DNA from: Vairimorpha necatrix
Taxonomy: Eukaryota
Direction of reading: 5' to 3'
DNA length: 64,000 nucleotides
Assembly (NCBI GenBank): GCA_036630325.1
Contig: CP142736.1
Coordinates: 1 to 64,000, forward strand
Part shown: positions 17,801 through 50,557 of the stretch, one piece after another
Layout: each line of letters starts with the position of its first letter
How positions within the stretch are numbered: the stretch's first letter is position 1
Translations under genes and position numbers: made by a program
Notes under the pieces: generated by a model
What the model was told of the DNA's origin: nothing
Databases searched by the model: none
The model's input: only the letters and a program-made list of their open reading frames with translations

Positions 17801-17802
17801 TA

Positions 17803-20800
17803 TGTTATATATTTTGATAATTTTTACCCCCATTATGATAAATAAATACATGGGGGCGATACCAAATCGAGAGTCAACAAGTGATGGCTGTGGTCAAGAG
17901 GCCAGAATAATGTTACAAGAAATTAAAAGAATAGTTTATAAGCTAGAGTTGGATGGAGTAGATGAGTCTCTATGGAAGGCAAGAATTTATGAAATGGGTT
18001 CGGAAGAAGTAAAGAACTTTATGGTAGAAAGAATTAAAAAAGAAGATAGTTGGTCCTTAATTATTGAAGAAATGGAAAATGAGGTTAGAAAGGACGAATT
18101 AAAAAAGAAGGAAGAAGAAGACAAAAGTAAGATGATGGAAATAATTGCAGAGTCGGTTAGAGGAACAGTTCGAGAGGAGCTGGCAAATAGAGGAGCATTA
18201 GGAAAAATAAGGGAAGAAACTACGAGAGTAAGAAGTAGAGATTGTTTTTACTGTGGTAGATTTGGGCACATGGCAAGAGATTGCTTCGTAAGGAAGAGGA
18301 AAGAAGAAGATAATAAAAATAAACATTTTAACAAGTATTTAAGGGTTCATGAAGAGAGTGGATCTACAACCACAGAACTTAGCGCACAAGAATATAGGAA
18401 ATGCGGAGAAGCAAAACGTAAACAAAATTCAAAAAGGAGAGGAATGAGAGAGGATAGAATAGAAGAGGGCCTTGTCATTGAAGATATAAAAGCGAAGTTT
18501 AGAGAAATTTTTGACTTGCAGCAGGAAGAGATCGTACACTGTAAGATAGAGAAATGTAAAATTGAGACGCCACCAGGGAAAAAAGTAGTTAAAAGAGGAC
18601 AAACTATCCCACAGGCGTTGATGGAAAATACTGAAAAATATATAAAAAGTTTGGAAGAAAGAAAAATTATAAGAAGATCAACATCCGAGTGGAGGAACCC
18701 AATTAGAGCTATAGTAAAACCTAACGGAGGAGTAAGGCTTGTAAGTAATCTAATGAGTTTAAATGACTTAGTTGAAAAAGATCCGTATGAGTTGTCAAAT
18801 ATTAGGGACATCGTTAGAGCCACACAGGGGTCTAAATGGTTTACCGTTATAGATCTGAAGGAAGGCTTTTACCACGTAGAGATTGAAGAAGAGGATAAGC
18901 ACAAAACGGCCTTTGAATTTAACAGAAAGGTATATGAATGGAACAGTATGGTAATGGGATATAAAAATTCCCCGCAGATATTACAACGAATAATGAACCA
19001 AATATTTGAAGATTTACAAGGAGAAGGAGTGGAGGTATATATGGACGACATCGTTATACACGCTAGAACTAAAAGAAGGCATGACAAGCTAGTTATAGAA
19101 GCATTGGAAAGATTAAAAAGACATAAAATGAGATTGAATATTGAGAAGATACAGTTTAGCCAACAGTTAGTTAAGCTCTTAGGAGTCACATTGAATGGTA
19201 CAGATATTGAAGCGAATGAAATAAAGAAGAACGAGGCGTTAGAATTCCCGCAGCCGACAAGTGTAAGTGAAACACGAAGATTCCTAGGAATGACAGGATG
19301 GTTTAGGAACTTTATAAAGAATTACGCGGGATTAACTATTCATCTGACAGATAGCTTGAGAGGTAAAGATAAGAAGTGGGAATGGACGGTTGAAATGAAT
19401 AGAGAGTTTTTAGAGCTGAAAGAAGTTTTGAGAGCGATGGGGAAACTTAGATTGCCTGATTATAGGAAGGAATTTATATTGAGAACGGACGCGAGCAATG
19501 TAGGGATAGGAGCCGTGTTACTTCAGAAGAACGATAAAGATGAATGGGTAGCAATCCAATGGAGTTCAAAAAAGTTAACACCTACAGAGACCAGATATAC
19601 TATATCGGAGAAAGAAATGTACGCGGTATTTTGGGGGATAAAAAGATTTGAATACGAGTTGCGCGGTAGGAAGTTTAAAATTGAGACGGACCATAAAGCC
19701 TTGGTTGAGATTAGAAATAAACCGTGTTTTAATAACAATAGAATAAATAGATGGATTGAAAAGATCCAGGAATTTGACTTCACCATAGAATATAAGAAAC
19801 CAGAAGAAATGGTGGTGGCTGACGCGTTAAGCAGGATACATATTGAAGACGATGAAAGGAAAAAGAAAATCAGAGAAAGGACCGCCAAGCAGATAGAGGG
19901 CAAATGGAAAGCGCACGTCGATGACGCAGAAGGGAAAAAATATTGGAGATTTGATTCAGGACGGAAAGTCGAGATACCACCAGAAGAGTCAAGGGAAAGT
20001 TTGATGCAGGAATACCACGAAAAAGTTGGACATAGATGTATGACAAGTGTATATTACGCGATGCGGGAAAGATTTTATTGGCCCGGAATAAAGAAAGACA
20101 TAAATGAGACAATTCGAAAGTGTGTACAATGTCAAATATAAAATAGAAAAAGACTCGGTGGATGTGAGTTTGTAGATACTACACGTTATTTAGAAAAGGT
20201 TGCTTTGGATCTCATTGATTTTAGAGACGCAGGTAAATACGTATTGGTTGCGATAGATTATTACACTCGAAGAGTATGGGGCACGGTAATGGAGAACAAG
20301 ACTGGAAAGAATGTGACAGAATTTTTAAGTAAGTTGTGTGAACAAGGAAAAAAGCCCGAAGAGATTATAACGGATAATGGGCGAGAATTTATCAATGAGG
20401 GGTTTAGAGAGTTGTGTAACAGACTAGAAATTAAACATAGGAAAGTAAGTGTCGAATCACACAGGAGTAATGGCAGAGTCGAGAGGGTTATAGGTACGCT
20501 GCGAGAGAGCATTCTGAAGACTAAAGAAGGTACATTTGCAGAGAAGGTCATGGGAAGCATTGAAAAATATAATATGAGTTACCACACGGCACTAAAATGT
20601 ACACAATAGAAGCGACAGAGGATAAAACTGGACATGTAATGATTGAAAATAGCCCACAAGGGAAATATGGAAAACTGTTTAACAGGGGGAAAAGGGAAAA
20701 ATTTAAAGTAGGTGAGTACGTGAGAGTAGCTAAGAAGGAAAACTTAAAAGGTGCGGCTAAATATTCGAAAGGTAGGTTTTTAGAGAGTGGGGAAATTATA

Positions 20801-20976: not shown

Positions 20977-22141
20977 TATTATTTTAAAGTGAGTATTTTC
21001 CTTGTTAATTATCATGATTTGCTTCTCTTTCTTTTTACATTTGTATATATACTTGTCATCTCTGAAAAATCTAAAATTTGAATCTCTAAAATTAGAAATT
21101 ATTGCATTTTATACTAATTATTTTTTCATAATTTTCTTTTCTGTCTTATTGTATATATATATATATGTAAATAGAATTTTCCTCATTTTAAAAATGAAAA
21201 TTTCAAAACCCATAAATTAGAAATTATTGCAATTTAGACAAATAAATTTTCATGATTTTTATCAACTTCTTTTTTTTTATAAATGTGTATATATTCTTTT
21301 CATCAATGAAAAAATAAAATCAAAATTATGTCATTTTAGATAATTTCTTTTTCATGATTATCCTTATTCTTGGTGTTTGAATATATATACTTGTCATCCT
21401 TAAAATATTAGCAATTTGGAAGTTCAAAAAAAAAATTATGACTTTTAGCCTTTATATACTATAAAATTTCATATTTTTTGCGAGTAGAAGGGAAGATATA
21501 ATCTTATACATGAACTCAAAAGAAATTGAGTTAACAATCCAATTGATATGGGGTATTTCTACTCACTTAACTATTACCGAATACTTGCGCTTCACTATCT
21601 CAGACGTAACTATTTAGATTTGATGAGAATATTTTTATATACAAGCCTCTAATCGCATCATTAAATCAATAAATATATTAAAATGAAGATTTTAAAATCT
21701 CTGTATAGATTTATCAGATTAATATAATGTCTATATAAAAATAAATCATCTAGATCCCAGATGGCTCTTTCTCTTACACAGAACACTAAAAGCAAACTTA
21801 TTAAACTTTTTTGAACTAATGAAATAATTGAACAGATCTCCATTTTATACTATATCTTGTTTGAAAGAAAACAAACTTCAAAAATTTTCACATCAAGAGT
21901 GGCATAATTGGCTTTTAGATCCCTATTAAATATACAGCTATGGTATTTTGAAACACAGAAGGACAAATTATATGTAAAAAAATTTGAATGTGAATATATT
22001 TCAGAAATTACTAATCAATTCATTTCAAGAATTACTTTCAATATATTTGTTTAGTCTATCAATTTTGAAATATTATATTTAGTGACGTCTGTATGTCCGC
22101 GAGTAGATATCTTTATACTTAGAATATAATTTAAATTTTAT

Positions 22142-23757: not shown

Positions 23758-26359
23758 TCATATATATAAAAGAATTTTATTTAATTTTTTACCCCTCTTT
23801 TTTGTGGTTTTGAAATTTTTAAACTATATATATTAGGCTTTCTATGTTATTTAAATGTCAAATATAGATTTATGGCGTTTATTTTACTATTCTAAGTGTG
23901 TATGTTATTAGTTAATACTTTTTAATTTTAATTATTATTTTTGTTAAACTCGGTTCCAAAATATCGTCAGAATCGTTTTTTAGAATTTATTTGACCCTTC
24001 CACGAAAAATTATAAAAAGATTTAACCAATAATGATTTTGAATAAAAGTGTTAAAAATTGAGCTTTAGGAGTTTTCAAAATTATTTCAATGAGACTCATA
24101 AGTGTTTTTAACTCAACTTTACTCCTTATATGTTACTAAAAAGTATTTTTGAAAATCATGTCTAAACTCTGTCAAATATAATCATCTAAAATGGAAACTA
24201 AACAAAATTAAAAGAAAAATACATATTAAAAAAACTAAACATTAAGATCCCGTTTTCAAAACGGGAAAGCATACGCTAGTCATATATATAAAAGAATTTT
24301 ATTTAATTTTTTACCCCTCTTTTTTGTGATTTTGAAATTTCTAAACGATACATTTTGAGCCTTTTACGTTAATATAATATCATATGTAGATTTAATGTTT
24401 TAATTTGATAATTGTAAGTGCGTATACTTTATATTAATGGATTTTTATTTTTATTATTATTTTTGTTAAACTCAGTTCCAAAATATCGTCAGAATCGTTT
24501 TTTAGAATTTATTTAACCCTTCTAGAAAAAATTCACAAAAACATGTACCAAAAAAAAAAACAGCATAAAAGTGTTAAAATTGAGTTTAGAAGTTCCCGAA
24601 ATTATTTCAATATGACTCAAAAGTGTTTTTAACTCAACTTTACTCCTAATATGTTACTAAAAAGTATTTTTGAAAAAGATGATTTCATCCTATCAAATTC
24701 AATCATCCCAAAATGTAAACTCAAAAAAATTCAAGGATCAAAGACATATTAAAAAACTAAACATTTCGATCCCGTTTTCAAAACGGGAAAGCGTACGCTA
24801 GTCATATATAAAAAGAATTTAATTTAATTTTTTACCCCTCTTTTTTGTGGTTTTAAAAATTTTAAACTTCTAATTATAGCTTATTGTGTTATTAAAATTG
24901 TGTTTTCGAATTTAATGCTTTCGTTTGATTATCGTAAGTGCGTATACTATATATTAATGCATTTTTATTTTAATTCTTTGTTTTGTAAAACTCAGTTCCA
25001 AAATATCGTCAGAATCGTTTTTTAGAATTTATTTAACCCTTCTAGAAAAAATTCACAAAAATAATAACCAAAAAAAAATAGAATAAAAGTGTCAAAAATT
25101 GAGCTTATAAGTTTCCCAAAATTATCTCATTATATTTATTAATTATTTTTAGCTCAACTTTACTCCTTATATGTTAAAAAAAAGTATTTTTTAAAATCAT
25201 GTCTTTACCCTGTCAAATTCAATCAGCCCCAAATGGAAACTTTAAAAAATACCGAGACGGGACATATTATAAAACAAACACATTTATCCCGTTTTCAAAA
25301 CGGGAAAGCATACGCTAGTCATATATATAAAAGAATTTTATTTAATTTTTTACCCCTCTTTTTTTGTGGTTTTAAAAATTCTAAACTTCTTATTTTCTCC
25401 TTATTGTGTCATTGGAATATCAAAATTAAACTCAGTGCTTAAATTTGATAATTGTAAGTGCGTATACTATATATTAATGCATTTTGATTTTAATTTTTTG
25501 TTTTGTAAAACTCAGTTCCAAAATATCGTCAGAATCGTTTTTTAGAATTTATTTGACCCTTCCACGAAAATTTGTAAAAACATTTAACCAATAATGATTT
25601 TGATGATAAGTGTCAAAAACTAAGCTTAAGAAGTTCCCAAAATTATCTTATTGAGATTATTAAATGTTTTAAAACAACACTACTCCTCATATGTTACTAA
25701 AAAGTATTTTTGAAAAATCATGTCTAAACTCTGTCAAATTCAATTATCCAAAATGGAAACTTTACAAAATTTAAGGATGAAAGACATATTAAAAAACTAA
25801 ACATTTAGATCCCGTTTTCAAAACGGGAAAGCATACGCTAGTCATATATATAAAAGAATTTTATTTAATTTTTTACCCCTCTTTTTTTGTCAATTTGAAA
25901 TTTCCACGCTATATATTTTAGGCTTTCTATATTTATTAAATATCAAATATAGATTTATTGCTTTAATTTGACTATTCTAAGTGTGTATGTTAATAGTTAT
26001 TACTTTTTTATTTTGATTATTATTCTTGTAAAACTCAGTTCCAAAATTTCGTCAGAATCGTTTTTTAGAATTTATTTAACCCTTCCGCGAAAAATTGTAA
26101 AAACATTTAACCAATGATGATTTTAAAGATAAAGGTCAAAAGCTGAGCTTTAAGAGTTTTAAACATATCTTATCAAGATTCATAAGTGTTTTCAACTTCA
26201 TTTTACTGTTCAAATGTTCATAAAAAGTGGTTTTAAAACATAACATCTCCTTTTCAAATTCCATCTTCCTAAAGTGGAAATTGAAAAAAGATAAAGGAGG
26301 TACATATTATAAAACAAAACATTCAAATCCCGTTTTCAAAACGGGAAAGCATACGCTAG
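23758..26359 (+). mobile_element. Head-to-tail array of five ~520-bp non-autonomous Helitrons
   Basis: Units 23758-24279, 24280-24801, 24802-25318, 25319-25841 and 25842-26359. Each starts TCATATATA and ends with hairpin CCCGTTTTCAAAACGGG, a short spacer and CTAG. The array sits between A (23757) and T (26360) with no TSD. Confidence 0.9.
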
Positions 26360-27115
26360 TAGTACATAATAAATTTCCAACGGGATGCAATCGATTCAGG
26401 ACATCGTAAAGATGCAATAATACAAGCATAAAAAACCGCTATAATTTTGTGTTGTAAGTAAAGCTAAGCTGTTATGAGAAAACATGGGGTTTTTTATTTA
26501 CGGACTTTAATGTCCAAATGTCACATGTCAAATATCTTGTGTCGAATGTCATTTTTTAAATAATTGGATGACATTTGATATGTTATACTTTCAACATTTG
26601 CATTCAAAAGATCTAAAAAGATGTTCTATCTGTCTATTCGACTTATGGATAAAGAATCATAATTATTTATTCGTATTTCTGTAGAAACCCCTGTCAAATA
26701 TCATCCTCATATCTATTAAATGATATTTGACACGGATTATAAATTAAGTAAAACACTAAAATCATGTCTTTAACCTCCGCTTTGAGAACACGTACAAAAA
26801 ATTTTGATAATAATTTTTACACTGATTCTTTAATCAAATGAAAATTTTTTCAACTTTTACTTCAAGTCTAGAATAGTTATTGGCTAAAGTGCACTTTGGC
26901 CGAGAAATTTCTATATTGTTCTTTTACAATTTTCTGCAAAAAAATTTGAAAAATTATTGACAGCCATTAAGATTTGTACAACCCAAATGAGATTTTTGAA
27001 ATGTTAAGTAAAAAACTTCGATAATTTATTTTCAGTTAATTCTAACATTTCTTTCAAATTAGAATTTTTTTAAATTTTTAAAACAATATAAATACTAATT
27101 TTATTTTTGCCCCTA

Positions 27116-29359
27116 ATGAATATAATCAAATTTTTTGTTGTAATTGGTTTGTAAAATCAAATATTAATATTTATAACAAAATAAATAAAATTATACTAAA
27201 GCAAATTGAAAATAGAAAGTATACAGTTTTTAACTTAAATAAGAAATATACTTAAATACAAATTTTTTGTAGGGAATATGATAAGACATTATGTTGTTCG
27301 CTTGTGAAAAATAATTTGAATGAAACTATTTCTAACGAATTTGGATATATAATTATTGATTATGCTAACAAATCCACTTATAATATTATTGAAGAAATAG
27401 AACAATTTATAAAGAAGATTAAATCGACTTTAAACATTGACTCTATCGTATTATTATATAGACAATCTAAATATCGACAAAGTAACAGAATTGTGAAAAA
27501 AATTATAGAAAAGTTAAATCAAATAAATGATGAAAGAAGAATAAAAAAGAAAGGAACCGAAATTTATTATGAAAATATTTGCGTTCGGGATTGTTTCTTA
27601 CACAATATCATTAAGAAGAAGCAAGAATTCGATTCAAAAAACGAATCTAGGGTGCAAGACCTAGAACCCATGATAATTTACAGCAGAAAAGAAGACGATA
27701 ATAGTTACTATTTCAGATTATGCATTGTAATTAAAAATATGTATTATTTGTTTGAATTTTATATAAACGAACTTGAAAATAAAAAACTTGATACTTTAGT
27801 TAAAATTAATGCAGAGAATATGTGTTATTATGACGCAAAAATATTAAAAAAATTATATGAAATTTTTAACGTCAATGATTTATATCATATTGAGGCAAGG
27901 GGCGAAATTAGATGTTTAGAAATTACACCAAACAAAATCGAAAAGATAATGCCTAAAAAATTCAAAATAGAGGTACACCCAAACTCTATAAACTTCTGTG
28001 ATGGATATAGAGAAAATTCTGTATATTTAAAAAATGATTCAAACAAGTATGATGGTGAAAAAAAATTTATTAACAATAATTTTTTTGATGAAATTAAGAA
28101 AATGTTGGAAAGGATTCATTTTATAGCGAATACAAAAGATTATAAATGTGTTGAATTTTTTTACAGATTACTAAAAAATTACAACAAAGTTGAATTTCTT
28201 ATAATGAGAATAATGAACAAACAAACATCTGCATTAAAAATAATATTTAATTGCATAATTAAGCATATGTACATTGTAGAGGAAGATGAATTGGATTACA
28301 CAACAGGTGAAATAATATTTAGATCAAATAATGAAGAAGATAATAAAAACAAAATTATAAATAAATTATCATATATATTGTCAGGGCTTCAATTTTCAGA
28401 TTGTTATTTAATAAAAATTTGCCTACTTTTGGAAGCAGAAGAATATATTAATAAAAAAAAACATAAACAACGAATATATTTGGGAATCATTAATAGATAT
28501 AAATGAATATATACGGGAGAAAAATAATGAAAAGATATCTCGTTCTGATGGAAAAAGCAGATGTATCAATATCTTAAAAATCATAAAGGAAGCAGAAAAT
28601 TACCATATTAACAATATTATAAAATATAAGAACGAAGTTTTGAAAAATGTCTGCAAAATAACATCATTATTTACAGGATTGGCTAGTTCGCGTTTTGTAT
28701 ACAAAGATACCAAGGAAGATTTCATAAGAAATGAAATTTGTGAAAACTTTCAACTTGATGGAAATGAGATAGAGGAAAAGGCCAATATTATAAAAAATAA
28801 TCTACAAAAAAATACAGATGAAGATGAAGAATATGAAAAAAGGAGAAAGTTAAAAGAGCAAGAAATAAAAAAAATAAGAGAAATGTTAAAAAACTCATCA
28901 TTAGATTATGATTTAAACATAATCAAATCAAATCCCTTGGAAGAAGAGCTTAAAGATATTTTCGACGAAGATATTAGAACATATTATGAAAATGAACAAA
29001 TAAAAAGAGGAAACATAATCATCGAAAATATATTTAATGAATTTATAAAAAAAAATGAAACACAAGAAGAATCAATAAATGATTATAAAAATGAAATAGA
29101 AGATGATTTTATACAAATTTTGAGAAATAATATAGAAGTTAGATTAAGAAAACAGGCCTCGATTGAATTACCTAAAGCTTTTAATAATTTATTTGAAAGT
29201 GAAATAAAAATATGTCACGTAGAAAAGGTTAAATTAAGAAAAAAATTTGCAAATGTTAAAATGATGTTAGATGAAACAATAATTCTAGAAATATTGAACA
29301 AGACTGAAGGAATAAAAATGCACGAATCATTTACTAAAGCTTTAGATACCTTTAAATAA
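27116..29359 (+). pseudogene. Disrupted large K/N/E/I-rich hypothetical protein, probably secreted (joins ORFs 27304-28506 and 28640-29359)
   Basis: GCCCCTA-ATG start context at 27116 and hydrophobic N-terminus MNIIKFFVVIG. Frameshift near 27150, in-frame TAA near 27253, and a frame switch at the A-run near 28452-28461. The 28640 frame is open back to about 28460. Confidence 0.6.
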
Positions 29360-37138: not shown

Positions 37139-40100
37139 TGTAGGGTTTAGAACCCTTAATAAATAAATGGTTAACATGGCGAACACAAGGATGAACAGGG
37201 AAACAAGAGAGTCCCGTAGTCAAGAGGCTAGAACATTAGAGAAAGAGGCAATTAGGATAGATAAGAGACTAAAGTTAATATTGTTAGTTGAAATTTGAGT
37301 GGAAAGATGTTATGGATTTGGCATCTGCGAACTTGCAGGATTATATTTTTGAAAATTTTTGTGACGGAAGGAGCAGTTGGGAGGAAATTTATAAAGGCTT
37401 ACAAAAAGGAGCAGAATTTGAGAGAGAGTCAGAAGAAAGACAAGAAATGATTAAAGAGATTATGGATAAAGTGTTGAAAGAGTTTAGGGAAGAAAGAAAA
37501 GAAAATCTTAGGATGTATAGGAAAAGAAGAGAAATCAGAGAAACTACAAAATGTTTTATATGTAAGAAAGAAGGGCATTACGCTAGAGAATGTCATGAAA
37601 GTGTAGCTGGTAGGGAAAAATATAAAATTAAAAAGGAACAAGTTTTACAGAAAGAACCAATTATCAACAATGAAGGGAAAAGATGTAAAACAGTAAATAA
37701 GTTAGAAAATTTAATTGAAAAGTATCCGGAAGTTTTTAAAGAATCAGAAGAAAAGATAAAATATCTCACAGGAGAGAAGTGTCCAATAAATACTAAGCAA
37801 GGTGAAAAGGTTGTGAAAAGAGGGCAGAATGTGCCATACTACCTTAGGGTGAAATTTGAGGAGTACTTGAATAAGTTGGAAAATAGAGGGGTTATAAGAC
37901 GTTCCAAAAGTGAGTGGAGGAGTCCAATAAGAGCACTTGAAAAACCAAATGGGGACGTAAGATTGGTAAGCAATTTGATGGCGTTAAACGATTTGGTTGA
38001 CAAGGACCCGTACTCACTACCGTTAATTAAGGATATTATGAGAGCCACGCAGGGGTCAAAAGTATTTACGGTTATCGACTTAAAAGAAGGGTTTTATCAT
38101 ATTGAGATTGAGGAGCACCATAAGCACAAAACAGCATTTGAAGTGAATGGTCGAGTATACGAATGGAATAGTATGGTTATGGGGTTTAAGAATTCGCCTC
38201 ATATAATGCAGAGAGTAATGAACAGAGTTTTAGATGAATTCAGAGGTAAAGGCGTGGAAGTATATATGGATGATATAGTTATTCATGGTAAAGACGTAAG
38301 AGTGCATGACGAGTTACTAGAGAGGGTAATTAAAAAGTTTAAAGAGTGTGGGTTGAGAATAAACCAAACAAAGATACAATACAAAAAAGATGAGGTGATG
38401 TTGCTGGGAGTAACAATTAATGGGGAGGTCATGGGACCGAATGAGATTAAAAAGCAGGAGACATTGGAATATAGAAAACCTGAGAATGTTAGAGAGTTAA
38501 GAAGATTTTTAGGACTAACTGGTTGGTTTAGAGACTTTATTCCCAACTATGCGTATAGAACAGTAAGGCTTACTGAGGCTTTAAAGAAAGATGTTAAATG
38601 GAATTGGACGGAGGATATGGAAAGAGCTTTTGAGGATATGAAGCAAGGCTTGAGAGATATGAAAAAGTTGAAGATTCCGGACGGAAAAAAGCTATTTAGA
38701 GTAAGAACTGATGCGTGTGATACGGGGATCGGAGCAATTCTATTACAAGAAAATAAAGAGGGTGAGTGGATTCCGATACAATGGGCATCGAAAATGTTGA
38801 CTCCTACCGAGCGAAGATATACGATAAGTGAGAAGGAGATGTTGGCGGTGTTTTTTGGAATAAAGAAGTTTGAAAGTGATTTGAGAGGAAGGAAATTTCA
38901 TTTGATGACGGATCATAAAGCATTAGCAGAGATCAGAAATAAGCCATACTTCAATAATAACAGAATAAACAGATGGGTAGAACAGATACAAGAGTTTGAC
39001 TTTACAATAGAGTATGTGAAAGGGGAGTTGATGACAGATGCAGATGCGTTAAGCAGGCAGTATGATCAGGTAGAAGTTTCGGATGAACAAAAAGAAAAGG
39101 ACAACAAGAGAAAAGAAGTGATCGAAAAACAAATTTTGGGAAAAAAGCAGAAACATATTAAAGAAAAGGACGGTAAACAGTATTGGGAATTTTCCACAGG
39201 TGAGGTGAAAGAGATATTGAGCCTAGATAGTAGAGAACATGAAATAACAAGAGTACATGAGGAGTTAAACCATAGAGGTGTCAAAGGCACTTATTATAAC
39301 ATTAAACAAAGATGGTATTGGCCTGGTATGAAAGATCATATTAATAAGGTAATTAAGAATTGTGAAATATGTGGGATTAACAATAGGAAAAACACAGGAG
39401 GATGTGATTTCGTAGTAACTAGAAAGAAATTGGAGAAAGTGGCGTTGGATTTAATGGACATAGGTGGAGAGAATAGGTATGTGTTACTGGGTATTGATTA
39501 CTTTACTAGAAGGTTGTGGGGTTCGAATTTGAGATGTAAAGAGAGTAGTGAAGTTATAGAGGTATTACAAAAGTGGAAAAGGGAAGATGGATTTCCAGAG
39601 GAATATGTGACAGACAACGGAAAAGAGTTTGTAAGTAATAGATTTAAAGAATGGTGTAGTATTAATGATATTAAACATAGGAAAGTGGGCTTAGAAGCTC
39701 ATAGGAGTAATGGTAGAATCGAGAGATGCATCAGAACTATAAGAGAGACATTGATAAAGCAAAATGATGGGAATATTTCTGAAAAGATAGAAAGAGCAAT
39801 CAAAGGATATAATAATACACTACATACAGCAATAAAATGTACGCCGATGGAAGCGTGGAGAGATCAAACTGCTGAAGTTATAATTGAAAATGATGAAAAT
39901 GGAAAATATGCTGGTCGGTTCAAGAGAAGACACAGAGAGACATTTACAGTAGGCCAAGAGGTAAGAATCGCTAGGAGAGAAAATTTAGGTACACGTGCGA
40001 AAACAGACAAGGGAAGATTCACGGGTCGCGGAAGGATCGTAGCTATAAGTGAAAATGATTCATATATTGTGAGACTACTGGATGGTAAAATTGTTAAAAA

Positions 40101-40211
40101 GAGGCATTATGATTTGAAAGAGATAAGGAAGAGTTGTTTAGAAGATGGAGAGACTACCCGTCTGGAGGGGGGATGTAGGGTTTAGAACCCTTAATAAATA
40201 AATGGTTAACA
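37139..40211 (+). mobile_element. Ty3/Gypsy micro-LTR retrotransposon (element C, protease-less clade)
   Basis: Identical 38-bp LTRs TGTAGGGTTTAGAACCCTTAATAAATAAATGGTTAACA at 37139-37176 and 40174-40211. PBS-like TGGCGAAC and PPT GGAGGGGGGA. Flanks TTTTC and TAAAA do not form a TSD. Confidence 0.97.
37176..40185 (+). CDS. Gag(CCHC)-RT-RNaseH-integrase polyprotein of element C, with one frame change near 37287
   Basis: The 965-codon frame 37288-40185 carries CFICKKEGHYAREC, YMDD, TDAC/TDH, HHCC and DDE. The upstream frame from ATG 37176 (MANTR..QEARTLEKE) aligns with the element B N-terminus (QEARIMLQE). The stop lies inside the 3' LTR. Confidence 0.88.
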
Positions 40212-41402
40212 TAAAATATTGTTAGTAATTTCTCGTTATATATTACCTCAGAAAGTTTCAGCTCACGAAAACTGAATCGTGAAGAGATCGTGGTTGTTAA
40301 AACCGAGAATGCACCTACCCCAAACAAAAGAATTTTAATAGATCAACAGAAATTTAGGTAAATAGCAATAGAAAGAATTACAGAAACTTCCATTGTAAAT
40401 GCTTGAACGAACGAAGTATTAGTCGAACCGTTGAAACTAGATTATTTTACAAAAAAAATTAATTTTTAAATTTAAGTTCTATAATTATTATTTTTTTACA
40501 TAAATTAAATATATGTATTTTTTAAAAATAATAATTAGCATAAGAATTTATGAGCTCTAAATTTTTATTTTTGTTTTTGGATTCTTGCATTAAAAACCCA
40601 TCATAGGAAATATTAGGTCTCTTTTTATATAAATATAAGTACATTTATTGTTTTACAAAGGCAAGCATATTTTTTACATAAAGACAGTTTACTTGTTGAA
40701 AGTTTTATATCTATCTGAACTCATTCGATGCCTAAGCTTCAACTAAAATTTATAATAAATGTTTGTTTTAAGCTGCCTGTAGTATTTTCGATTAAAAAAA
40801 AGGTAATTTGAAATATCAATATGTACATACATCGATTTCATATTTATTTAAAAAAATTACAAAAAAAATAAAGTTTTAGAATACATGCAGACTTTAGTTG
40901 TTCTATGTTGATAAGGTAATTGTTTATGAACAATATAATTAACTATAATCATACATTTAAAAAAAAAAATATTTTCTAGATATTTGCTTCAGTTGTATTT
41001 ATGATAAAAGCCTTTTATAATAAATATACACATGTAGACTTTTTTATAATATGTTTTATATTTTTTCTACAGAATTTGATCCATAAAGCATTTTGTGTAT
41101 ATAGAAACAATTGAAAAATTAGAAAAATGCTTTACGTATTTAAATTTTTAGTTTTTAATGTTTCCTTGATCTATAAGTTCCGACTGATCTCTACATTTTC
41201 AAAATAAATTTTATAAGTTTTCGTGGCATGAACAATCTACTGTTATATTCTATGTTGAACTACGCTTAGATCTTTTTGTGTTTATTATTTTTATTATGCC
41301 TCAATCGGAACCCCCAAACCCATAGTAAATTTTTATATACATCTACAGAAACATTTACTATTTACAAAATATATTTTTTTTACATGACAGTAAATTCCTA
41401 TT

Positions 41403-42078
41403 GGTACATGACCGTTTGGAACCCGCTTTAGGAAAATAACCCCGCATTGGGGAAATGAACCCGGTTTGAAATTTTAAAGAAACTCCCCTTTTTAAGAAAA
41501 TGGCAAAATTGGCAAAAACTAATTTTGTTGAGGCAGATGAGGTTTTTAATGATGAATTGATTTATACATGGAATATAATAAAAGGTTTATTTTGGAAACA
41601 TTTGATGCTGAATCGGCGTGCGCCTTGCTCGTTTCTGTAACTAGTAGAAATACTGCTTTTTCCTTGAGGTAATACAAGAAAATGTATAATCTCTTTCTAT
41701 TATGATTGCTAATCAATGAATAGCATATGATGCCACATTATCTAAGCAAAGGGATGGAGCACAGTACTAAGAATCACTCTATAAATGCTGTAGCCTCTAG
41801 CGATTCCGAGTCACCATCCGTCATATAATTTAGTTGGTTTGGGCTCATTTCTATAAGAGATATTCGTTCTAGATATAAACAAAGAAGAACACTATGAGTA
41901 CCTTTTACAGTTCCACTGAGTTTTCCAAATTCCCAAAAATCACCGGATAAATTGTCTTCTGTCATTATTTAAAATATATCATCAAGTCCCTTTTTTTATA
42001 ATTTTTTTTATTTTTCCCTTTTTTGAATTTTTCAAAGCGGGTTCATTTTTTAAAGCGGGTTCCAAAAGGTCATGTACC
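41403..42078. mobile_element. Non-autonomous TIR DNA transposon (MITE), Merlin-like
   Basis: 28-bp TIRs GGTACATGACC(G/T)TTTGGAACCCGCTTTA with one mismatch. Perfect 8-bp TSD TTCCTATT at 41395-41402 and 42079-42086. Subterminal GAACCCG repeats. GG termini with an 8-bp TSD fit Merlin, but the superfamily call is tentative. Confidence 0.88.
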
Positions 42079-43249
42079 TTCCTATTTGATTTTACTCAAT
42101 TTCATTAATTTTATGCGTACTGTGCTAATTATATTGTAACTAAATTACCATAGGGATTATTCTCTTGTCTATAATAGAACATGTATTAGCTAAATCAAAT
42201 TGAAAGGGTATGTTTATAATTGGTTTTTGTGAATTCATCGTAAGCAACTCACCATAAGCAATTAACCAAAAATTAAAATATGATTTTTTAGGGATATCCA
42301 TTCTAATAATATTCAACTGCTATACTATGCAATATATATTTAATCCATACATAATCAAATTTAAATTAAATATATATAATGGATATTCCTAAGAGAAATT
42401 AATATTTTGATTTTTCGATGAATTGATTTAGGTCAATTGCTATTCGGCGAATTCTCAGGACACCTTTTTTATTCTTGAGATATTAGGACGAATTTCGGGA
42501 TTGCTCTCATAACCCCCTCAATTTAGCTTATGGTTTCTGTGGTATCATTTATACTGCGTAGCTCCAAATTGGTGGTCATCCTGTTTTGAAACCTAACTCT
42601 TGACCAGTTGACTTCTTGATCGCTGCACACACGTTTTTAACCACTTCAAACTTTACCAAATACGTCTGGTTGTATTTTCAGCTTAATGATAACGATAAAC
42701 TTAGAATCACTGGATTATAAAATAGGTGTATATATAGAGAAATAATTAAATTCCGATTATCTGATGCTTTTTAATATAGTATATAACAACATACATTCGA
42801 TTAATTATCTATATTTTTATGTATATCAAAAAGATAACAATATCGAGGATAATACAATATAACCTAATTATTAAATGTGCTTTATCTATCTGATAGATTA
42901 GCTAAGTTCATAGAATCATTTTTTTAAGGTTGTACTAAACATTGTTGTTTTTAAAGGGTTGGATAAAGGTATTGAAGACCGGAGAGGAATCGCCAAATAA
43001 TTATTTTTTGATACTAAACACAAAAAAAAAATGAGCACAGGAAATTTACACGTAATGAATTTCTTTGTGTTGAAAAGAGTAGATGAGTTGTACAAAATTG
43101 TATGTTTATTAAAAAAAGTTTCCTTTTATATTTATGTATGAAACAATGATTGTGAAAATATGTTGGATTAGACCTGCTTGTGATGGAACAGTTTGAGTTC
43201 CGGAGAAAACAATGATTGGAAATAAAAGTTAACATTTATAAATTTTTAA

Positions 43250-43367
43250 AATTACAGCACCTTGCTTTTCCGAGCGGTCTCCCATCTCAGTACTCACAAG
43301 GCTCTTACTGGCTTAACTTCGGAGAGCTGACGAGTTCCGGTGCTTTACAGTAGATATGGCCGTAATT
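43250..43367 (-). rRNA. 5S ribosomal RNA
   Basis: Minus strand reads ATTACGGCCATATCTAC..GAACTCGTCAGCTCTCCGAAGTTAAGC..AGTACTGAGATGGGAGACC..GGTGCTGTAAT. Ends pair and a T-run follows. Resembles microsporidian 5S rRNA as recalled. Confidence 0.95.
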
Positions 43368-44369
43368 GTTAAATTTAAAAATTTAAATTCAGTAAATGTT
43401 GTTATGATTGATGTTAAACATCTGCTTGTGTAATATACTGAAAGTAATTTTAATAGTTTACATTTGATTATATAATTTAAATTTTTTAAGATCAAAGATC
43501 AAGGTATAATATGTAAACACACATTGTTATTATGCAATTTTTGCTCAGATTAGAACCCAGAACGGAAGCATATATACAGTCAAGAGTCCTTAAAATGACT
43601 TTAGAAAGCCTAACTATGTCAGCCAGACATGGGCTTGATACAGATCAGGAAGAGGTCTTCGAGAGCCTAATGAGTAAATCTCAGAAGGAAGCCTGGAACT
43701 GCCAGATGAGACTGTAAGCGTATCTTGTGAAAAGTAATTAATAAGTCGAATATTATACCCAAATAAAAAATTTAATTTATTGTGCAATTTTTAAAGTACT
43801 AGAAAAATTTCTTTTAAAAAAGAACAAATTATAATTTAATAAGATTTCATAAGGCCATTCCTATCAATTTTTGATTGACTTTTATAAGCTTGAGCATTGT
43901 TATACATAACATAATAAAGTATGACTTAAGAAGCAAATGAACACAATAGTATAAGGCCATCTAAATCATTCCACATTTTATTACGACTGATGTCATTTGA
44001 CCTAAGATCACTTTTTTCTATTACTATCGTATATATTTGCTTATTTAAAAATAGTTGGCTTTTTAGTAATTTACGAACTATTTCTATATTTTCTTTTGAA
44101 CTTACATGTTAATAAAGACATTATTTTTTCTACCTGTATATATCAAAGAGGATAATTAACTTTGTAAAATTTTAAAACAAAAATTAATAGGGAAAGTATG
44201 AGCCTATTGAAAGTAAACAACCCGTTTAGAGATTATTTTGTTTTAATAATAAACTAATTAATTGTTAAAGCTCAATTCACATCAATGGTAATATTGTCCT
44301 TTTAAAACCATATTTCGATCTATTCTGTTCCACTCTACACTAACTTTTTATTTTCAGTTTAAATATAGT

Positions 44370-47300
44370 TGTCGTATCCTTCTATAAATATTATATATTT
44401 TCACCCCCATGCAATTCGTAAATAAAGGAACATTCGACATGGCGACAGCGATAAAAACTGTTGGCTGCTTCAGTGGAAAGAAGGAAGAGGATATAAATAC
44501 ATGGTTGCGTGACACAACGTTCACGGCGAGGGTTATGGGACTGACAGAAGATCAGACCGCCAGACTTATCTGCCTGGGTCTACGGGGGCCAGCTCTCTCA
44601 TGGATAGCAATGGCATTTGAACGGGTGTCAGAACTTGATCTGGCAGAGGTTACTAAGAGTCTAAAATTGAGATTTTACAGTTCACAGAAAACTCTGGCCA
44701 CTCTAGACGAGTTTGTTAAACCGCAACAATTTGGCAACCTAGAGGCTTTCATAGACTTCTGCAGGAAAGGAAACTCACTTATAGAGCAACAAACAATGGA
44801 GTACAAAGCAGTCAGCCTCATAGTAATCAAGAAGTCTCCTTCGGTCCTCAAATCAATTCTTTATGATTTTGCTAGACAATGCCAAGATTGGAGTGAATTC
44901 CTGAGGCGCACAGAGGAAGTTTCTTGGATAGCATTCCCTATGAAAAGTAACACGACTAATACGGACGAGACACTAGATAACAGGACTTTGAAGGTCGCAC
45001 CATCGAAGAAGGGAAATATACCCTACACCATAGAAAACTACAAGATCAACAGCTGTTTCACTAATCCTTGCTACATAAACGTAGAATTCAATCGTAAACG
45101 ACATCGAGCATTAATTGATACCGGAGCTGATGTCTCCCTGATACCCGCAAGAGTCCTCGAAGGGACAAATATCAGATTTACCAGATCTTCAACGATCATA
45201 CGAGCAGCATCAGGGACACCATTGGAGATTACAGGAAGATGTCTAAATATCAATTTTAGGAAGGAAAACACTTCAATTACTTTCAGCCCTTACGTCACAG
45301 AACGGACACCGGACTACATAATCTTAGGAGTTGACGCTATACGAACGAACCCCATATTACTGGAACAACTGATCAGAAAATTCGCCAATACAGTCAAGAA
45401 AGGCTCACTGATTAACAAAGTCAATTACATCTCAATCGAAGAGAAATACCATGACATGTTCAAAACTGAAATTTCAGAGCTTACACTTTGTAACATGGGG
45501 AAACATCAAATCGAGACAACAGTAGCGAAGGCAATTTACCAGAAAAATGGAAAGATCCCTCTGCACTTTGAAGAGGAAATCACACAACAGATCAAGAAGA
45601 ACTTGCAGTTGGGCGTAATAAGAAATAGTAGGAGCCCCTGGAACAGTAGAGTTGTTCCGGTAACGAAACCTGATGGGTCGATCAGGCTCTGTATAGATTA
45701 CAGAGAGCTCAACAAGATAACAGTCAAAGATAAATACCCCCTCCCACGAATTGATGAAATTCTCGACGATCTAGCTGACGCTACTATCTTTTCGACATTA
45801 GATGCTACGTCGGGATATTATCAGATAGCCCTTGAAGAAGTAGACAAGGAGAAGACAGCATTCAGCTGGAGAGGAGGACATTATGAATTTAACAGGATGC
45901 CGTTTGGGCTATGTAATGCCCCTGCTACTTTTCAGAGAACTATGGATAAGATTTTTGTGAAAGAAAACAGAAAATTCGTCATACCATACTTGGATGACAT
46001 TATTATCTATTCTAAAAATCACCAGGAACACCGTGAACACTTGGAAATCGTATTGGGTAAGCTTAAGGCAGCAGGAATCGCACTTAACAGAAAGAAGTGC
46101 CACTTCTTCAAAGAAGAAATTAAAATTCTAGGGAATATAGTAACAAACAAGACGATCAAACCGGACCCAGAGAAGGTCAAAGCCATAAACGAGTATAAGG
46201 AGCCGACGAATGTTGCTCAACTACGGTCGTTTCTTGGGCTCATAAATTACTGTAGGGAGTTCATCCGTAACTTATCAGCGATAGCAGCCCCTCTCTACGA
46301 ACTGTTTAAAGGAGAGTCAAAGCGAAGTGTTAAGAGTATTTCTCTCAGCAAAAAGGAGAAACGGGCGTTCGAAGATCTAAAGAGACTTCTCACAGAAGAG
46401 ACAATAAGATACAAGATTAATCTCAGGAAACCGTTTATATTGACTACGGATGCGTCAGAGCAGGGAATAGGCGCGATCCTCTCACAGATTGGAGATGATG
46501 GGAAGGAGCACTTCGTAAGTGCATTCAGCAAAAGTTTAGAGAAAGCCCATAAGAACTACTCTACAACAGACAAAGAACTCTTGGCCGTTGTAAAAGGCAT
46601 CGAGAACTATAGACACTACCTCCTGGGTAGAGAGTTCATATTGAAGACGGACCACAAAGCGCTGACTTATCTATGGGAAGCTAAGAATCCTACCAGTAGA
46701 TTGCTGAGGTGGGCAATGAAGTTGCAGGAGTATGCATTTCAATCAACCTACATAAAAGGAGAGGTTAATGGAGCAGACGGGTTAAGCAGACAAAACCCGA
46801 CAGAGAAAGATATAAATATCATCGAAGCTACAGGACCAAGCGATGAAGACAGACAGAAGATCTTAGAATCCTACCATCTAGACGTTGGACATGCTAGCGC
46901 TAGTACGATGAGCTTCATGATTTCACAAAGGTACAAATGGGCAGGAATGCATAAGGACATCAAGGAACACGTAGAAAAGTGTAAAACGTGCTTGAAATCG
47001 GGATACCCATTACGAAACACAAAAAACAAAGTTATACGATCAGAAAGGCCGAACCAAATATGGGGGATAGATCTCATAGGACGCATATGCGACACTTCGG
47101 GTCAAAACAGCTTCATATTCATTGCTATTGACCACTACTCTAAATGGGTCGAGACGGCTGTTATTAACTATAAAACAGGGTCGAAAATAATGGGATTAAT
47201 CCAGCAATTGATTATCGAGAAACACGGCATTCCAGAAAGAATCTTGACTGACAACGGGCTAGAATTTATAAATTCTGACATCAAAGACCTGGCCGAAAAG

Positions 47301-47914
47301 AACGGTATTGACTGGCAATACAGTTCACCAGAACATCACGAAACTGTAGGCGCAGTAGAAAGAGCGAATCAGACGTTAATGAAGATACTAAATAAAATTA
47401 CAGATTTCGGAAGGGTAAGCTGGAAGAACAAGCTTCCAGAAGCCACGAGATGCCTCAACCTGTCTTATAATCGGAGCATAGGAACATCGCCGTTCATGTT
47501 AAGGGAGAATAAATTGCCGATGCTGTCTGTAGACAAAGCGCTAGACAAGGAAGAAGTGACATTCTCAGCGGAGGAAACGAAGAGTAAGCGCGATGAAAAC
47601 TTCGAAAAGTACAAAAAAGCAATCGTGAAAGGGAAAGTAGAGGTGGCGAAAAAGCTAAACGTGGGCGATAAAGTTTTAATATATCGTGAGACTAAAAGCG
47701 GGAAGTTCAAGTGCAATTGGGAAGATGGATACGTGATCACAGAAATAATTTTACCCGATGCCTATGTGGTAAAAAAGAATGGAAAAGTATACAGGCTTAA
47801 CAAAACACGAGTTAAAGCAGATACTTCAATTTAGGGGGGAGAGGTGTCGTATCCTTCTATAAATATTATATATTTTCACCCCCATGCAATTCGTAAATAA
47901 AGGAACATTCGACA
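44370..47914 (+). mobile_element. Intact Ty3/Gypsy micro-LTR retrotransposon (element D, protease-containing lineage)
   Basis: Identical 70-bp LTRs at 44370-44439 and 47845-47914 (TGTCG..CGACA). TSD ATAGT on both sides. PBS-like TGGCGACAGC and PPT AGGGGGGAGAGG. Confidence 0.98.
44409..47834 (+). CDS. Single-ORF Gag-PR-RT-RNaseH-integrase polyprotein of element D (1141 aa; alternative start 44439)
   Basis: Capsid-like FSG..W..LRGPALSW; protease ALIDTGADVS; RT RLCIDYRELN, MPFGL and YLDD; RNase H TDAS and TDH; integrase HHCC, IDL, TDNG and VER. No CCHC knuckle and no chromodomain. Confidence 0.97.
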   Translation: MQFVNKGTFDMATAIKTVGCFSGKKEEDINTWLRDTTFTARVMGLTEDQTARLICLGLRGPALSWIAMAFERVSELDLAEVTKSLKLRFYSSQKTLATLDEFVKPQQFGNLEAFIDFCRKGNSLIEQQTMEYKAVSLIVIKKSPSVLKSILYDFARQCQDWSEFLRRTEEVSWIAFPMKSNTTNTDETLDNRTLKVAPSKKGNIPYTIENYKINSCFTNPCYINVEFNRKRHRALIDTGADVSLIPARVLEGTNIRFTRSSTIIRAASGTPLEITGRCLNINFRKENTSITFSPYVTERTPDYIILGVDAIRTNPILLEQLIRKFANTVKKGSLINKVNYISIEEKYHDMFKTEISELTLCNMGKHQIETTVAKAIYQKNGKIPLHFEEEITQQIKKNLQLGVIRNSRSPWNSRVVPVTKPDGSIRLCIDYRELNKITVKDKYPLPRIDEILDDLADATIFSTLDATSGYYQIALEEVDKEKTAFSWRGGHYEFNRMPFGLCNAPATFQRTMDKIFVKENRKFVIPYLDDIIIYSKNHQEHREHLEIVLGKLKAAGIALNRKKCHFFKEEIKILGNIVTNKTIKPDPEKVKAINEYKEPTNVAQLRSFLGLINYCREFIRNLSAIAAPLYELFKGESKRSVKSISLSKKEKRAFEDLKRLLTEETIRYKINLRKPFILTTDASEQGIGAILSQIGDDGKEHFVSAFSKSLEKAHKNYSTTDKELLAVVKGIENYRHYLLGREFILKTDHKALTYLWEAKNPTSRLLRWAMKLQEYAFQSTYIKGEVNGADGLSRQNPTEKDINIIEATGPSDEDRQKILESYHLDVGHASASTMSFMISQRYKWAGMHKDIKEHVEKCKTCLKSGYPLRNTKNKVIRSERPNQIWGIDLIGRICDTSGQNSFIFIAIDHYSKWVETAVINYKTGSKIMGLIQQLIIEKHGIPERILTDNGLEFINSDIKDLAEKNGIDWQYSSPEHHETVGAVERANQTLMKILNKITDFGRVSWKNKLPEATRCLNLSYNRSIGTSPFMLRENKLPMLSVDKALDKEEVTFSAEETKSKRDENFEKYKKAIVKGKVEVAKKLNVGDKVLIYRETKSGKFKCNWEDGYVITEIILPDAYVVKKNGKVYRLNKTRVKADTSI

Positions 47915-50557
47915 ATAGTATTAAGAATTTAAATTCAAATTCTACCATCCAAATAAAACTCGTTATAAAATGTCAGGCTAATTAGTAGTCGATTTATTGA
48001 AGTAAATACATACGAAACAGTGAACGCAAAAAAATTAAAATAGAGTTATAAATATTTTACAAATGGATTTCTGAAATAAAACTAATAGAACACGTATTAG
48101 TTACAAAATTCAACATATAATTGCATGAAGTAGCTAAAAGTCAAAATAAAGCTGCTTATTTGTATCTTGTACAATTGCGAAAATCTCTAATTCTGTTTCA
48201 CATGTAAATTTTTTTCTAAAATTATTTAAGCACATTTTTTTATTTTTTATGTAGGTTAATTACTTTTTGAATATTTCTTGTTTGATAAAACTTGGTATAC
48301 GTTACGTTATAGTTTTATTATTTTTTAACATTAAATATTTTTTCAAATTTGTGCCATCACATTTTCTTTGCAGCTAACTTTTTGTTAAAAAAGCCGGGAT
48401 TTTAACGAGTATCAGTAATTACATACTTAATCGCCAAACAGAGATCGTTTATTGGAAAAATGGTTACGTATAATATCGAGTTTGATTATTGAGAGAAATA
48501 TAATGTTAATTGTAACGCGTTTATATAAACATAATTAAATAGGTGATAGCCAAGTAATACTTAGATTTTTCATGATCCTTATGTCAAATATAGTTAATAG
48601 GTGTTAATTTATACCTGATAACGCGGCTAATATTGAAAGATATGTGTTTTATCAGATATAACAAGTCGATTTGTGTATTAAATAGAATATAAAGTCATTT
48701 TTTGTTATCTACTTCGAATTGTTGAACTAACCTAGATTTTATTTGTAAAAAAAATATCAATTTCGAGATGATGTTACACAAGACCGTAATTTTCCGTAAC
48801 CTCTACATATATCATGATTAATGTTAAGAATATTTCTCTGACAATAAAGCAGTTTTGCAAACATACTACAAAAATAAGCGAAATAGTTCATGGCACGTGA
48901 TATATATTTTAGAGTCATTTAAATATCTATTTTATATCTAATATAATAAGATTGGCTTATGAGTACGTTTAATGGTCCATAAGAACCAGATCCAATAAAA
49001 ATCAGGACTTAATTTTTTGCAAATAAGAAGAAGAAACGTTTAGTTGAGGAATTTCAAAGCTTCAAAAATTCTATGTTTGATACTGTTTAGTACGGCCGTC
49101 TCCTATATATGTTTTTTTATATATGCACAAGAAAAGTAGTGTTGATTTAAAAGTGATTTTGAGTGAAATTTTATTTTTACTTAGGTAATGAATCATTTTA
49201 TATTTTCATAAAAAATAACACTCATGATAAATTTTTAACAGAATTTTAACTTTTTTATACGTGAAAATTCGTCTATGAAAGTTTTATATTTTAGAGAACT
49301 ATGACTAACTGTAAAAAAAATTGTTTTAGTAATTTCAGATATAACATGTTTTAAAAAGTATTGCACTATCAAATTTTTGGATACTTTTAATGCTTAAAAT
49401 ATTGCGTTATAGCGCGTTTTAAGATCATATAAAATATTTATATTATTTATTTTGCAAATTTGTTTATGAATATATGTACTCGTAGCTATCCCCCAGTGTA
49501 TTGTGTTTTAATATATACCTATTCATTCGAAACAACACAGATATCTTTAAATAAAACTATATTATATATTTTTAGTAGTAAAAACATGTGTCTTTATTGA
49601 TATAGGTGATCTATAAATCTCGTGGCCATTTCGGCGGAAAAAATTTGCTTCATCTCATTATCTTTTTAACATAAAAAAAAATATAACAAAATAAATTTAT
49701 TCAACTAATAGTGAAATGTTATAAATCTCCGTTAATTTGTAACTTCTTGATCAATTAAGAGATTTATCTATAGATCAATATACACATATTTGATCAAAAT
49801 TTCATAACACGCCAATCATAACTTTTCCAATTAAATAACCAATACAGTCCATAACATTTAGAAATGTTATATAGTAAGAAAATGTGCGATAAACGGGAAA
49901 GTGCAGGAAAGTAAGAATACAACAAAGATCCCCATTTATGTTGCATTAATTCTACTCTAAAATAGTATATGTAATCATTTTGAACTTGTATCAAAAAATT
50001 AATAAAAAATTAACGCATACTATTGTTGGGATCCTGGCGAAGTGATGTGCTAGAAAGTACAATGTTTGATGTTTTGAAAATAAAAATCATACAGTTTTGG
50101 TAGTTTGAGTATAATAGCCAAAATTCTCTTTGACCCTAATAAGAAGGTTTCCTGAGTTTTTTTTTGTAAAAATATTGTTTATGGCAATATGCTACTTAAT
50201 ATGCTTATGAGTATGTTTTTAGATTAGAGACAGAAAAAAGAATATTTTGTTTTTTACAATTTTTAGAGATTTTGCTTAATGCATTTATAATTGCTTAACT
50301 AAAAAAAAATAGTAACATATAAAAATATCCAATATTTGACATGTAAAAAACACATTCTATAAATAAAAATTATAGTTTTTAGAAGGTGCAATGATTTAAG
50401 ATTTATTAGAGCTTCTGCTAATAATTTATATTTTACTTATAAAACATTACATAATATATTGTTGAAATAGTTTTATAAAAAAGTAAAGCCGTTTTTCAAA
50501 AAATATTTGTTTACATTAAATCAATCATATTAAAATAATTACATTTAATTCATTGCA

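Follow-up and report, generated by a model that had tools for sequence, protein, structure and literature searches.

Gag-pol reading frames that appear to open within or at the edge of very short LTRs in compact Ty3/gypsy elements of Vairimorpha necatrix

Where does translation of a retrotransposon begin when its long terminal repeat (LTR) is only 38 nt long and a reading frame is open across the end of that repeat? The question is raised by a Ty3/gypsy element, here called C, at positions 37139-40211 of the first 64,000 nucleotides of Vairimorpha necatrix contig CP142736.1 (forward strand; the whole of this stretch is referred to as the window). A reading made from the letters of the DNA (the sequence-only reading) had proposed that in C, and in three further elements A, B and D, the terminal A of the 5′ LTR and the TG of the primer-binding site (PBS) form a junction ATG that opens Gag, that each element also carries an in-frame ATG inside the LTR, and that the PBS and the polypurine tract (PPT) are coding. 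Our overall reading, to which we assign a probability of roughly 0.7, is that these elements represent a compact microsporidian gypsy lineage whose LTR resembles a host promoter and whose gag-pol frame starts in the LTR or at its edge. The start-in-LTR design is real for the families, and the description of it was wrong in detail for two of the four copies, C and A. The window itself is a subtelomere of V. necatrix, as judged from matches of the element proteins at 94-99% identity; a telomere-to-telomere HiFi assembly of this species has been published (PMC10759460).

A search for direct repeats, combined with reading of the ends, delimited four compact elements of 3.1-3.5 kb with LTRs of 38-70 nt. 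Element A (2656-5815, minus strand) is decayed, has diverged LTRs of 38 and 39 nt, and lies between copies of the target-site duplication (TSD) TATAA at 5816-5820 and 2651-2655. Element B (17803-20976, plus strand) has LTRs of 48 nt, the TSD TATTA (17798-17802 and 20977-20981), an in-frame stop at 20139 and a decayed integrase. Element C (plus strand) has LTRs of 38 nt, no TSD, and a frame shift near its start, and element D (44370-47914, plus strand) is intact, with LTRs of 70 nt and the TSD ATAGT (44365-44369 and 47915-47919). All four LTR pairs have TG..CA ends, and the duplications of A, B and D are each 5 bp long. Directly 3′ of every 5′ LTR, which ends in CA, stands TGG, and directly 5′ of every 3′ LTR stands a G-rich PPT; the PBS types seen are TGGCGA.., TGGGGGCGA.. 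and TGGCACC.., and a tRNA scan of the 64-kb window returned 0 genes. Pfam domains RVT_1, RT_RNaseH, Integrase_H2C2 and rve occur in the elements in gypsy order and in a single frame, the aspartyl protease being recognized by Pfam in D only and zf-CCHC in B; C has a zinc knuckle, CX2CX4HX4C, found by eye. The best protein matches come from V. necatrix, Nosema granulosis, Enteropsectra, Pancytospora and Pseudoloma. With a single polyprotein frame and microsporidian nearest relatives, A-D appear from their sequences to belong to the microsporidia-specific Ty3/gypsy lineages.

Element D consists of one open reading frame (ORF) and displays the arrangement in full. Its 5′ LTR (44370..44439; TGTCG..CGACA) contains TATAAATA at 44383-44390 and CCCCC at 44404-44408, the latter abutting an in-LTR ATG at 44409-44411. 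From there the gag-pol ORF (44409..47834, 1141 codons) reads AATAAA at 44421-44426 as Asn-Lys, crosses the junction ATG (44439-44441), takes in the PBS, which begins at 44440, and runs intact to a TAG at 47832-47834, which overlaps the PPT (47833-47844), as had been claimed. An annotated V. necatrix protein of 1141 aa is 99% identical. The 3′ LTR occupies 47845..47914, and a contig of run X1 joins 47844 to 44370 by 70 shared bases. This run consists of contigs only and was taken as DNA because it covers intergenic flanks; it may share organism or sample with the assembly and shows other copies of a family rather than giving independent confirmation of the species.

Element B, which is one ORF as far as its stop, repeats the pattern in a shorter LTR. 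Its 5′ LTR (17803..17850, TG..CA) holds a T-rich stretch, CCCCC at 17827-17831 and an in-LTR ATG at 17835-17837, after which AATAAA (17841-17846) is again read in frame as Asn-Lys. The gag-pol frame runs from the junction ATG (17850-17852; frame 17850..20141), with a coding PBS from 17851, to an in-frame TAA, and the ATGs at 17835 and 17850 both lie in this frame of 779 codons, in which zf-CCHC, RVT_1, RNase H and the integrase zinc domain are recognizable ahead of the decayed downstream part of the integrase. The PPT is at 20919-20928 and the 3′ LTR at 20929-20976. The 48-nt LTRs of B are 100% identical, yet the element carries the in-frame stop at 20139 and more breaks in the integrase; LTR identity over 48 nt says little about its age. 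The claim that the junction ATG opens Gag in all four elements therefore holds literally for B and D, with frames of 779 and 1141 codons, and fails for C and A, in which the frame from this codon closes after 43 and 18 codons, respectively. In A (5′ LTR 5778-5815, 3′ LTR 2656-2694, the two differing at several positions), the in-LTR ATG (5785-5787) and the junction ATG (5776-5778), both on the minus strand, are mutually in frame. All positions given for the junction ATGs (17850, 37176 and 44439, and 5778 on the minus strand) and in-LTR ATGs (17835, 37167 and 44409) proved correct, and the two codons share a frame in every element, A included (5787, minus strand).

The architecture is conserved among relatives, which were collected as 81 D-family and 54 B/C-family database proteins, the B/C classes being assigned by reading the N-termini. 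Of the 71 relatives that bear an N-terminus, 64 have an in-frame ATG as their junction codon, and the other seven start further upstream. Specifically, the Gag N-terminus is present in 39/81 D-family proteins, with Met at the junction in 35 and Leu in four; 28 of these 39 have a Met-initiated upstream extension of 8-28 codons, ten start at the junction, and one is cut by a contig end. The B/C family retains it in 32/54 proteins, with junction Met in 29, the three exceptions (Asp, His and Leu) starting 1-6 codons upstream; here 24 have an extension and eight start at the junction. The residue before the junction is Asp, Asn, Tyr or His in 48/53 cases (27/29 in the D family, 21/24 in the B/C family), and the residue after it is Ala or Gly in 30/32 B/C members, while the D-family motif itself requires Ala. 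Residues encoded by NAC or NAT, together with Ala or Gly, are the footprint expected of an LTR ending in ..ACA followed by a PBS opening with TGG, and at the protein level this appears to be what they are. Asn-Lys, the reading of AAT AAA, occurs in 13 of 29 D-family N-terminal extensions compared with ~10% expected. In Anncaliia algerae, likewise, the ORF start lies inside the 5′ LTR in 43 of the 50 complete LTR-element consensuses of Table S1 of Parisot et al. 2014 (rows counted here). The junction ATGs are thus not randomly framed across families, and a gag-pol start in or at the edge of the 5′ LTR, with a coding PBS, is family-wide.

The same arrangement could be followed at the DNA level in loci from metagenomes. 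L012 has a 75-nt LTR with ..TTTTTAACCC and then an ATG 30 nt before the LTR end, preceded by AACCC; nine codons, AAT-AAA among them, lead to GAC-A/TG-GCG (the slash marking the LTR end), and the stop overlaps the PPT. In L013 the LTR is 176 nt long, the ATG lies 48 nt before its end, AATAAA again gives Asn-Lys in the reading frame, and the ORF runs on to a stop within the 3′ LTR; the motif before the in-LTR ATG is GGAGGG in the 5′ LTR (190-195) and GGGCCC in the 3′ LTR (3970-3975), both GGG/CCC-like. L015 reads TATAAATA..ACCC and then ATG, with TTG as its junction codon. The metagenome scan yielded only four B/C-type loci: two (L001 and L002) are rearranged in their 5′ parts, a third (L004) is broken, and L003 has a degenerate ~40-nt LTR that retains the motif and in which only the junction ATG is in frame, the in-LTR ATG being out of frame. 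A scan of viral contigs returned nothing with the B/C alignment and only distant non-microsporidian elements with the D alignment. L012-L015 and proteins P0029, P0088, P0089, P0099 and P0110 are filed in public bacterial metagenome-assembled genomes (Clostridium, Leadbetterella, Carnobacterium, Aeromonas, Bacteroidales), which is binning contamination, and bacterial gene calling has given a wrong downstream start to at least P0088, whose contig is that of L012.

How often such a frame would arise by chance was estimated from random points in the non-element DNA of the window: an upstream in-frame ATG was met before a stop in 19% of trials, and the mean open run is 14 codons. Against this background of 19%, 52/71 relatives have an in-frame upstream ATG. 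All four window elements have an in-frame in-LTR ATG, A and C being related; the CATGG junction is forced by the LTR and PBS ends, and its frame has a 1-in-3 chance per lineage. As a control outside microsporidia, nine gypsy loci whose LTRs (69-394 nt) had definable ends were inspected, in which the gag ATG stands 18, 23, 29, 51, 74, 151, 319, 359 and 601 nt past the LTR end, so that 0/9 start at or before it. Short leaders after the PBS do occur outside microsporidia, and a start in the LTR does not within this nine-locus sample.

The surroundings of the in-LTR ATG suggest how the design may operate. A CCC or GGG motif lies 0 nt from the in-frame in-LTR ATG in D, L012, L013 and L015, 3 nt from it in B, and 10-11 nt in A and C; the gap in the A. 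algerae consensuses is 0 nt for retro L and 11 nt for retro CK. In Encephalitozoon cuniculi, rapid amplification of cDNA ends has given 5′ untranslated regions (UTRs) of <7 nt and a CCC-like (rarely GGG-like) motif immediately 5′ of the ATG, preceded by an AAATTT-like signal, while AAUAAA, near the coding sequence, serves as the poly(A) signal; the upstream regions of Nosema ceranae ribosomal-protein genes shown in the same source read ..TTTTTACCC.. (PMC2803860). For V. necatrix itself, CCC or GGG within 30 bp of the start has been reported for 77% of genes with a characterized function, for 75% of those classed as hypothetical and for 54% of predicted transposons (PMC10759460). Two ORFs of the window that lie outside the elements and lack a Pfam match also have CCC near the ATG (..GAACCC at 27660-27672, and ..AAAATTTTAAACCCCTAAA at 51281-51310 on the minus strand), in agreement with the published microsporidian promoter pattern. 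A promoter function of the CCC/GGG motif in the LTR is suggested by its resemblance to these host signals.

On this reading, the LTR would have shrunk to a copy of the host core promoter, consisting of an A/T-rich stretch, CCC or GGG, and an ATG 0-11 nt further on, and would in addition hold an AATAAA poly(A) signal and the TG..CA ends. We infer that transcription would most likely begin a few bases 5′ of the in-LTR ATG, as in E. cuniculi host genes, which would leave almost no 5′ UTR, and that translation would start at the in-LTR ATG where there is one and otherwise at the junction ATG composed of the LTR-terminal A and the PBS TG. The frame would then pass through the LTR end and the PBS into Gag and, at the other end, reach, enter or cross the PPT, in some members continuing into the 3′ LTR. 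The R region would be short, extending from the transcription start to the LTR end or near it, and U5 would be close to zero.

The alternative that survives best, although we consider it unlikely, is that translation starts only at the junction ATG, that transcription begins past the in-LTR ATG, and that the latter is an unused by-product of the LTR. The junction codon is after all the in-frame ATG in those 64 of 71 relatives, 18 of which start exactly there, and in B and D the AATAAA sits between the two ATGs, so that such a start would keep this signal out of the RNA 5′ end. Set against this are the seven relatives with Asp, His or Leu at the junction, which retain an in-frame upstream ATG, and the non-ATG junctions visible at the DNA level in L015 and in A. 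algerae retro CK. The CCC/GGG motif abuts the in-LTR and not the junction ATG in D, L012, L013 and L015, the R region remaining after AATAAA would measure only 4-14 nt, and upstream in-frame ATGs, in 52/71 relatives, exceed the 19% background.

Several observations nevertheless weigh against a start in the LTR governed by a host-like promoter. If transcripts began before the in-LTR ATG of B and D, the AATAAA that lies 3′ of this codon would stand near the RNA 5′ end and would have to be ignored there. In C, the 38-nt LTR leaves only ~15 nt upstream of CCC for promoter function. Short 5′ UTRs are not universal in microsporidia, those of Edhazardia aedis being ~180 nt long with multiple starts (PMC2474625). 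The absence of an upstream ATG in 18/71 relatives makes the in-LTR ATG dispensable in some lineages. The N-terminus is missing from 42/81 D-family and 22/54 B/C proteins, most of which begin in the protease or reverse transcriptase (RT) and several inside Gag; in P0088 it is missing by annotation choice, its contig (L012) being open from the in-LTR ATG. Finally, the relatives are not phylogenetically independent, and the counts overstate the number of independent events.

Element C, the site at which the question arose, carries this design in a damaged form. Its 5′ LTR (37139..37176, TG..CA) contains GGG, CCC at 37153-37155, overlapping AATAAA signals at 37158-37167 and, just behind them, the in-LTR ATG at 37167-37169; in A, too, AATAAA comes shortly ahead of its in-LTR ATG. 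The ORF that this codon opens (37167..37298, plus strand) includes the junction ATG (37176-37178), continues across the PBS, which begins at 37177, and ends after 43 codons at a TGA (37296-37298). The main gag-pol frame (37288..40185, 957 codons) lies in the +1 frame with respect to the junction ATG and has no ATG ahead of the one at 37312. At the far end, the PPT (40164-40173) is read as Glu-Gly-Gly and the stop TAG (40183-40185) forms bases 10-12 of the 3′ LTR (40174..40211), which is identical to the 5′ LTR; both the Glu-Gly-Gly reading and the stop inside the 3′ LTR had been correctly described. The 43-residue peptide aligns to residues 1-42 of an N. granulosis polyprotein (62% identity, E 1e-12), and the main frame resumes at residue 43 of this homologue (E 6e-19). 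By homology, then, the peptide is the true Gag N-terminus, severed by a frame change at ~37284-37296. A run X1 contig of depth 60.6 (flanks ~8), which covers 37159-38567 of the C family, differs from the window by substitutions at 37284, 37285 and 37294 and by two extra bases behind 37289; the two extra bases bring gag-pol into the frame of the junction ATG. Copy C represents the common design with a shifted frame, not a different design. A tiny intron at the break was considered and rejected, since the site lacks a GT..AG segment of the required length class and the homologues are collinear there. The flanks of C read ..TTTTC and TAAAA.., with no TSD, unlike those of A, B and D, and another run X1 contig (depth 8.6, ~90% like the window) joins 37139 directly to 40211, i.e. 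it is an allele or haplotype without C.

These data bear on two further explanations. One holds that the true start is a downstream Met, such as that at 37312 in C, and that the open frame through the PBS and LTR arises by chance or as an artefact of choosing the longest ORF. Even though the long ORF of the window copy does begin at 37312 and several database proteins begin inside Gag, we regard this as very improbable: the upstream peptide of C matches the first 42 residues of the homologue, and the break coincides exactly with the step from residue 42 to residue 43; the C-family contig of higher depth has a single frame; and A/T-rich DNA closes frames as fast as the mean open run indicates. 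Moreover, in D the conserved Gag block F.G...ED..W starts ~10 residues past the junction, ahead of the next Met, and in the D-family alignment A12 and G23 are invariant and M11 is present at 90% or more, so that a downstream start in D has no room. The other explanation, that copy C is functional as it stands, its 43-codon ORF being a regulatory upstream ORF or being joined to gag-pol by a programmed +1 frameshift, can draw on the overlap of the two frames by only 9 nt (37288-37296), the otherwise intact 957-codon ORF and the identical LTRs, but is scarcely credible given a higher-depth X1 contig without the break, homologues that are continuous across it, and an LTR pair whose identity over 38 nt says little about age.

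The sequence-only reading also drew conclusions about the element ends and the RNA. The coding PPT is borne out in some members, where the frame also takes in the opening bases of the 3′ LTR. Its statement that no untranslated leader remains is an inference, and its conclusion that no packaging region remains does not follow, since packaging signals can lie in coding RNA, as they do in Ty1 (PMC4974528). Its proposal that each 3′ LTR offers an outward promoter plus ATG to flanking DNA is a logical consequence of identical LTRs and has no instance in the window: no host ORF is fused to a 3′ LTR ATG there, the outward frames closing after 8 (B), 7 (C), 33 (D) and 4 (A) codons. A search of the window for solo LTRs at no more than 3 mismatches found none, returning only the known pairs and one hit for the diverged pair of A.

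If the architecture functions as outlined, it may be informative beyond this locus. As a tentative proposal, which we hold to be possible rather than probable, the LTR could represent the minimum for an autonomous LTR retrotransposon, packing start codon, poly(A) signal and a core promoter of host type into 38-70 nt, with an R region of ~15-35 nt and a U5 of ~0, and it could contain a built-in switch between the roles of the RNA as mRNA and as genome. Under this proposal, the tRNA primer would anneal over the first gag codons (the TGG lying within the junction ATG), so that on a given RNA priming and the start of translation would be mutually exclusive. The elements bear on the compaction limit of an autonomous LTR retrotransposon: ~97% of D is coding, as ~98% of the C family would be with the frame break discounted, and the reading frame shares nucleotides with the presumed promoter, the start and stop codons, the poly(A) signal, the LTR end, the PBS and the PPT. 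They would also be a clear case of a transposon copying the unusual gene-expression signals of its host. On the practical side, LTR finders with a minimum LTR length near 100 bp will miss such elements, and bacterial gene callers mis-start them. Questions raised include the shortest R that permits strand transfer, how a 5′ AATAAA is ignored, and how tRNA priming and translation share the same codons.

The remainder of the window holds other repeats. It starts with ~2.5 kb of telomere repeats, an irregular CCTAA/CCTA tract and not a pure pentamer, ~160 nt from which the decayed element A ends; the remaining DNA has ~25% G+C. Five tandem copies of a ~520-bp unit occupy 23700-26400, with a well-conserved 72-nt core that includes the short palindrome CCCGTTTTCAAAACGGG. 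Between C and D, run X1 contigs covering 41388-42135 and 43258-44005 reach depths of 49-132 compared with 5-13 nearby, and these segments probably represent other repeat families. At 57394-57828, an ORF of 144 codons matches the hAT dimerisation domain weakly, below the cutoff (E 8.6e-4), and may be the remnant of a DNA transposon.

The closest known counterparts are the LTR elements of A. algerae, for which the core of the design has already been published in tabular form (Parisot et al. 2014, Table S1), and it is in this respect only moderately novel. Retro L is listed there with an LTR of 50 and an ORF at 32-3049 of 3127, and retro CK with an LTR of 73 and an ORF from 45. Like the window elements, members of these groups encode a single gag-pol polyprotein; they measure 3.1-4.3 kb in total, and their shortest LTRs have 45-50 bp. 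In the retro L consensus ACCC is followed by ATG, five codons and AAC-ATG-GCG, the same string of signals as in B and C. The V. necatrix families are other members of this assemblage, and no LTR in that table is as short as the 38 nt of A and C. The part of the Parisot et al. text at hand mentions neither a PBS (the term occurs 0 times) nor an LTR start or promoter motif, and a literature search on microsporidian LTR retrotransposons found no paper describing the start-in-LTR design. New here are the connection drawn to the CCC promoter of the host, the observation that poly(A) signal, PBS and PPT are coding, the counts of conservation among relatives, and the 38-nt LTR.

Outside microsporidia, the nearest parallel in layout is Ty1 of Saccharomyces cerevisiae, whose Gag AUG lies in the 5′ LTR, an LTR of ~330 bp, behind a structured 5′ UTR of ~50 nt. 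As in the window elements, the Ty1 PBS is inside the GAG ORF (PMC4974528). The PBS of Ty1, however, stands tens of nt past the AUG, whereas here it overlaps the junction ATG, and in Ty1, which is of copia type, integrase precedes RT and a +1 frameshift joins gag and pol, whereas the window elements have gypsy order and a single ORF; they resemble Ty1 in layout only and are not members of its group. With Ty3 and typical gypsy elements they share TG..CA LTRs, a putative PBS that opens with TGG beside the LTR, a PPT rich in purines and the order protease, RT, RNase H, integrase, and differ from Ty3 in that its PBS adjoins the 5′ UTR and is non-coding (PMC4974528). The likeness to the microsporidian host core promoter is of another kind, comprising an A/T-rich or AAATTT-like stretch, a CCC/GGG-like motif, an ATG within a few nt and a nearby AAUAAA (PMC2803860), the difference being that the motif here lies inside a transposon LTR.

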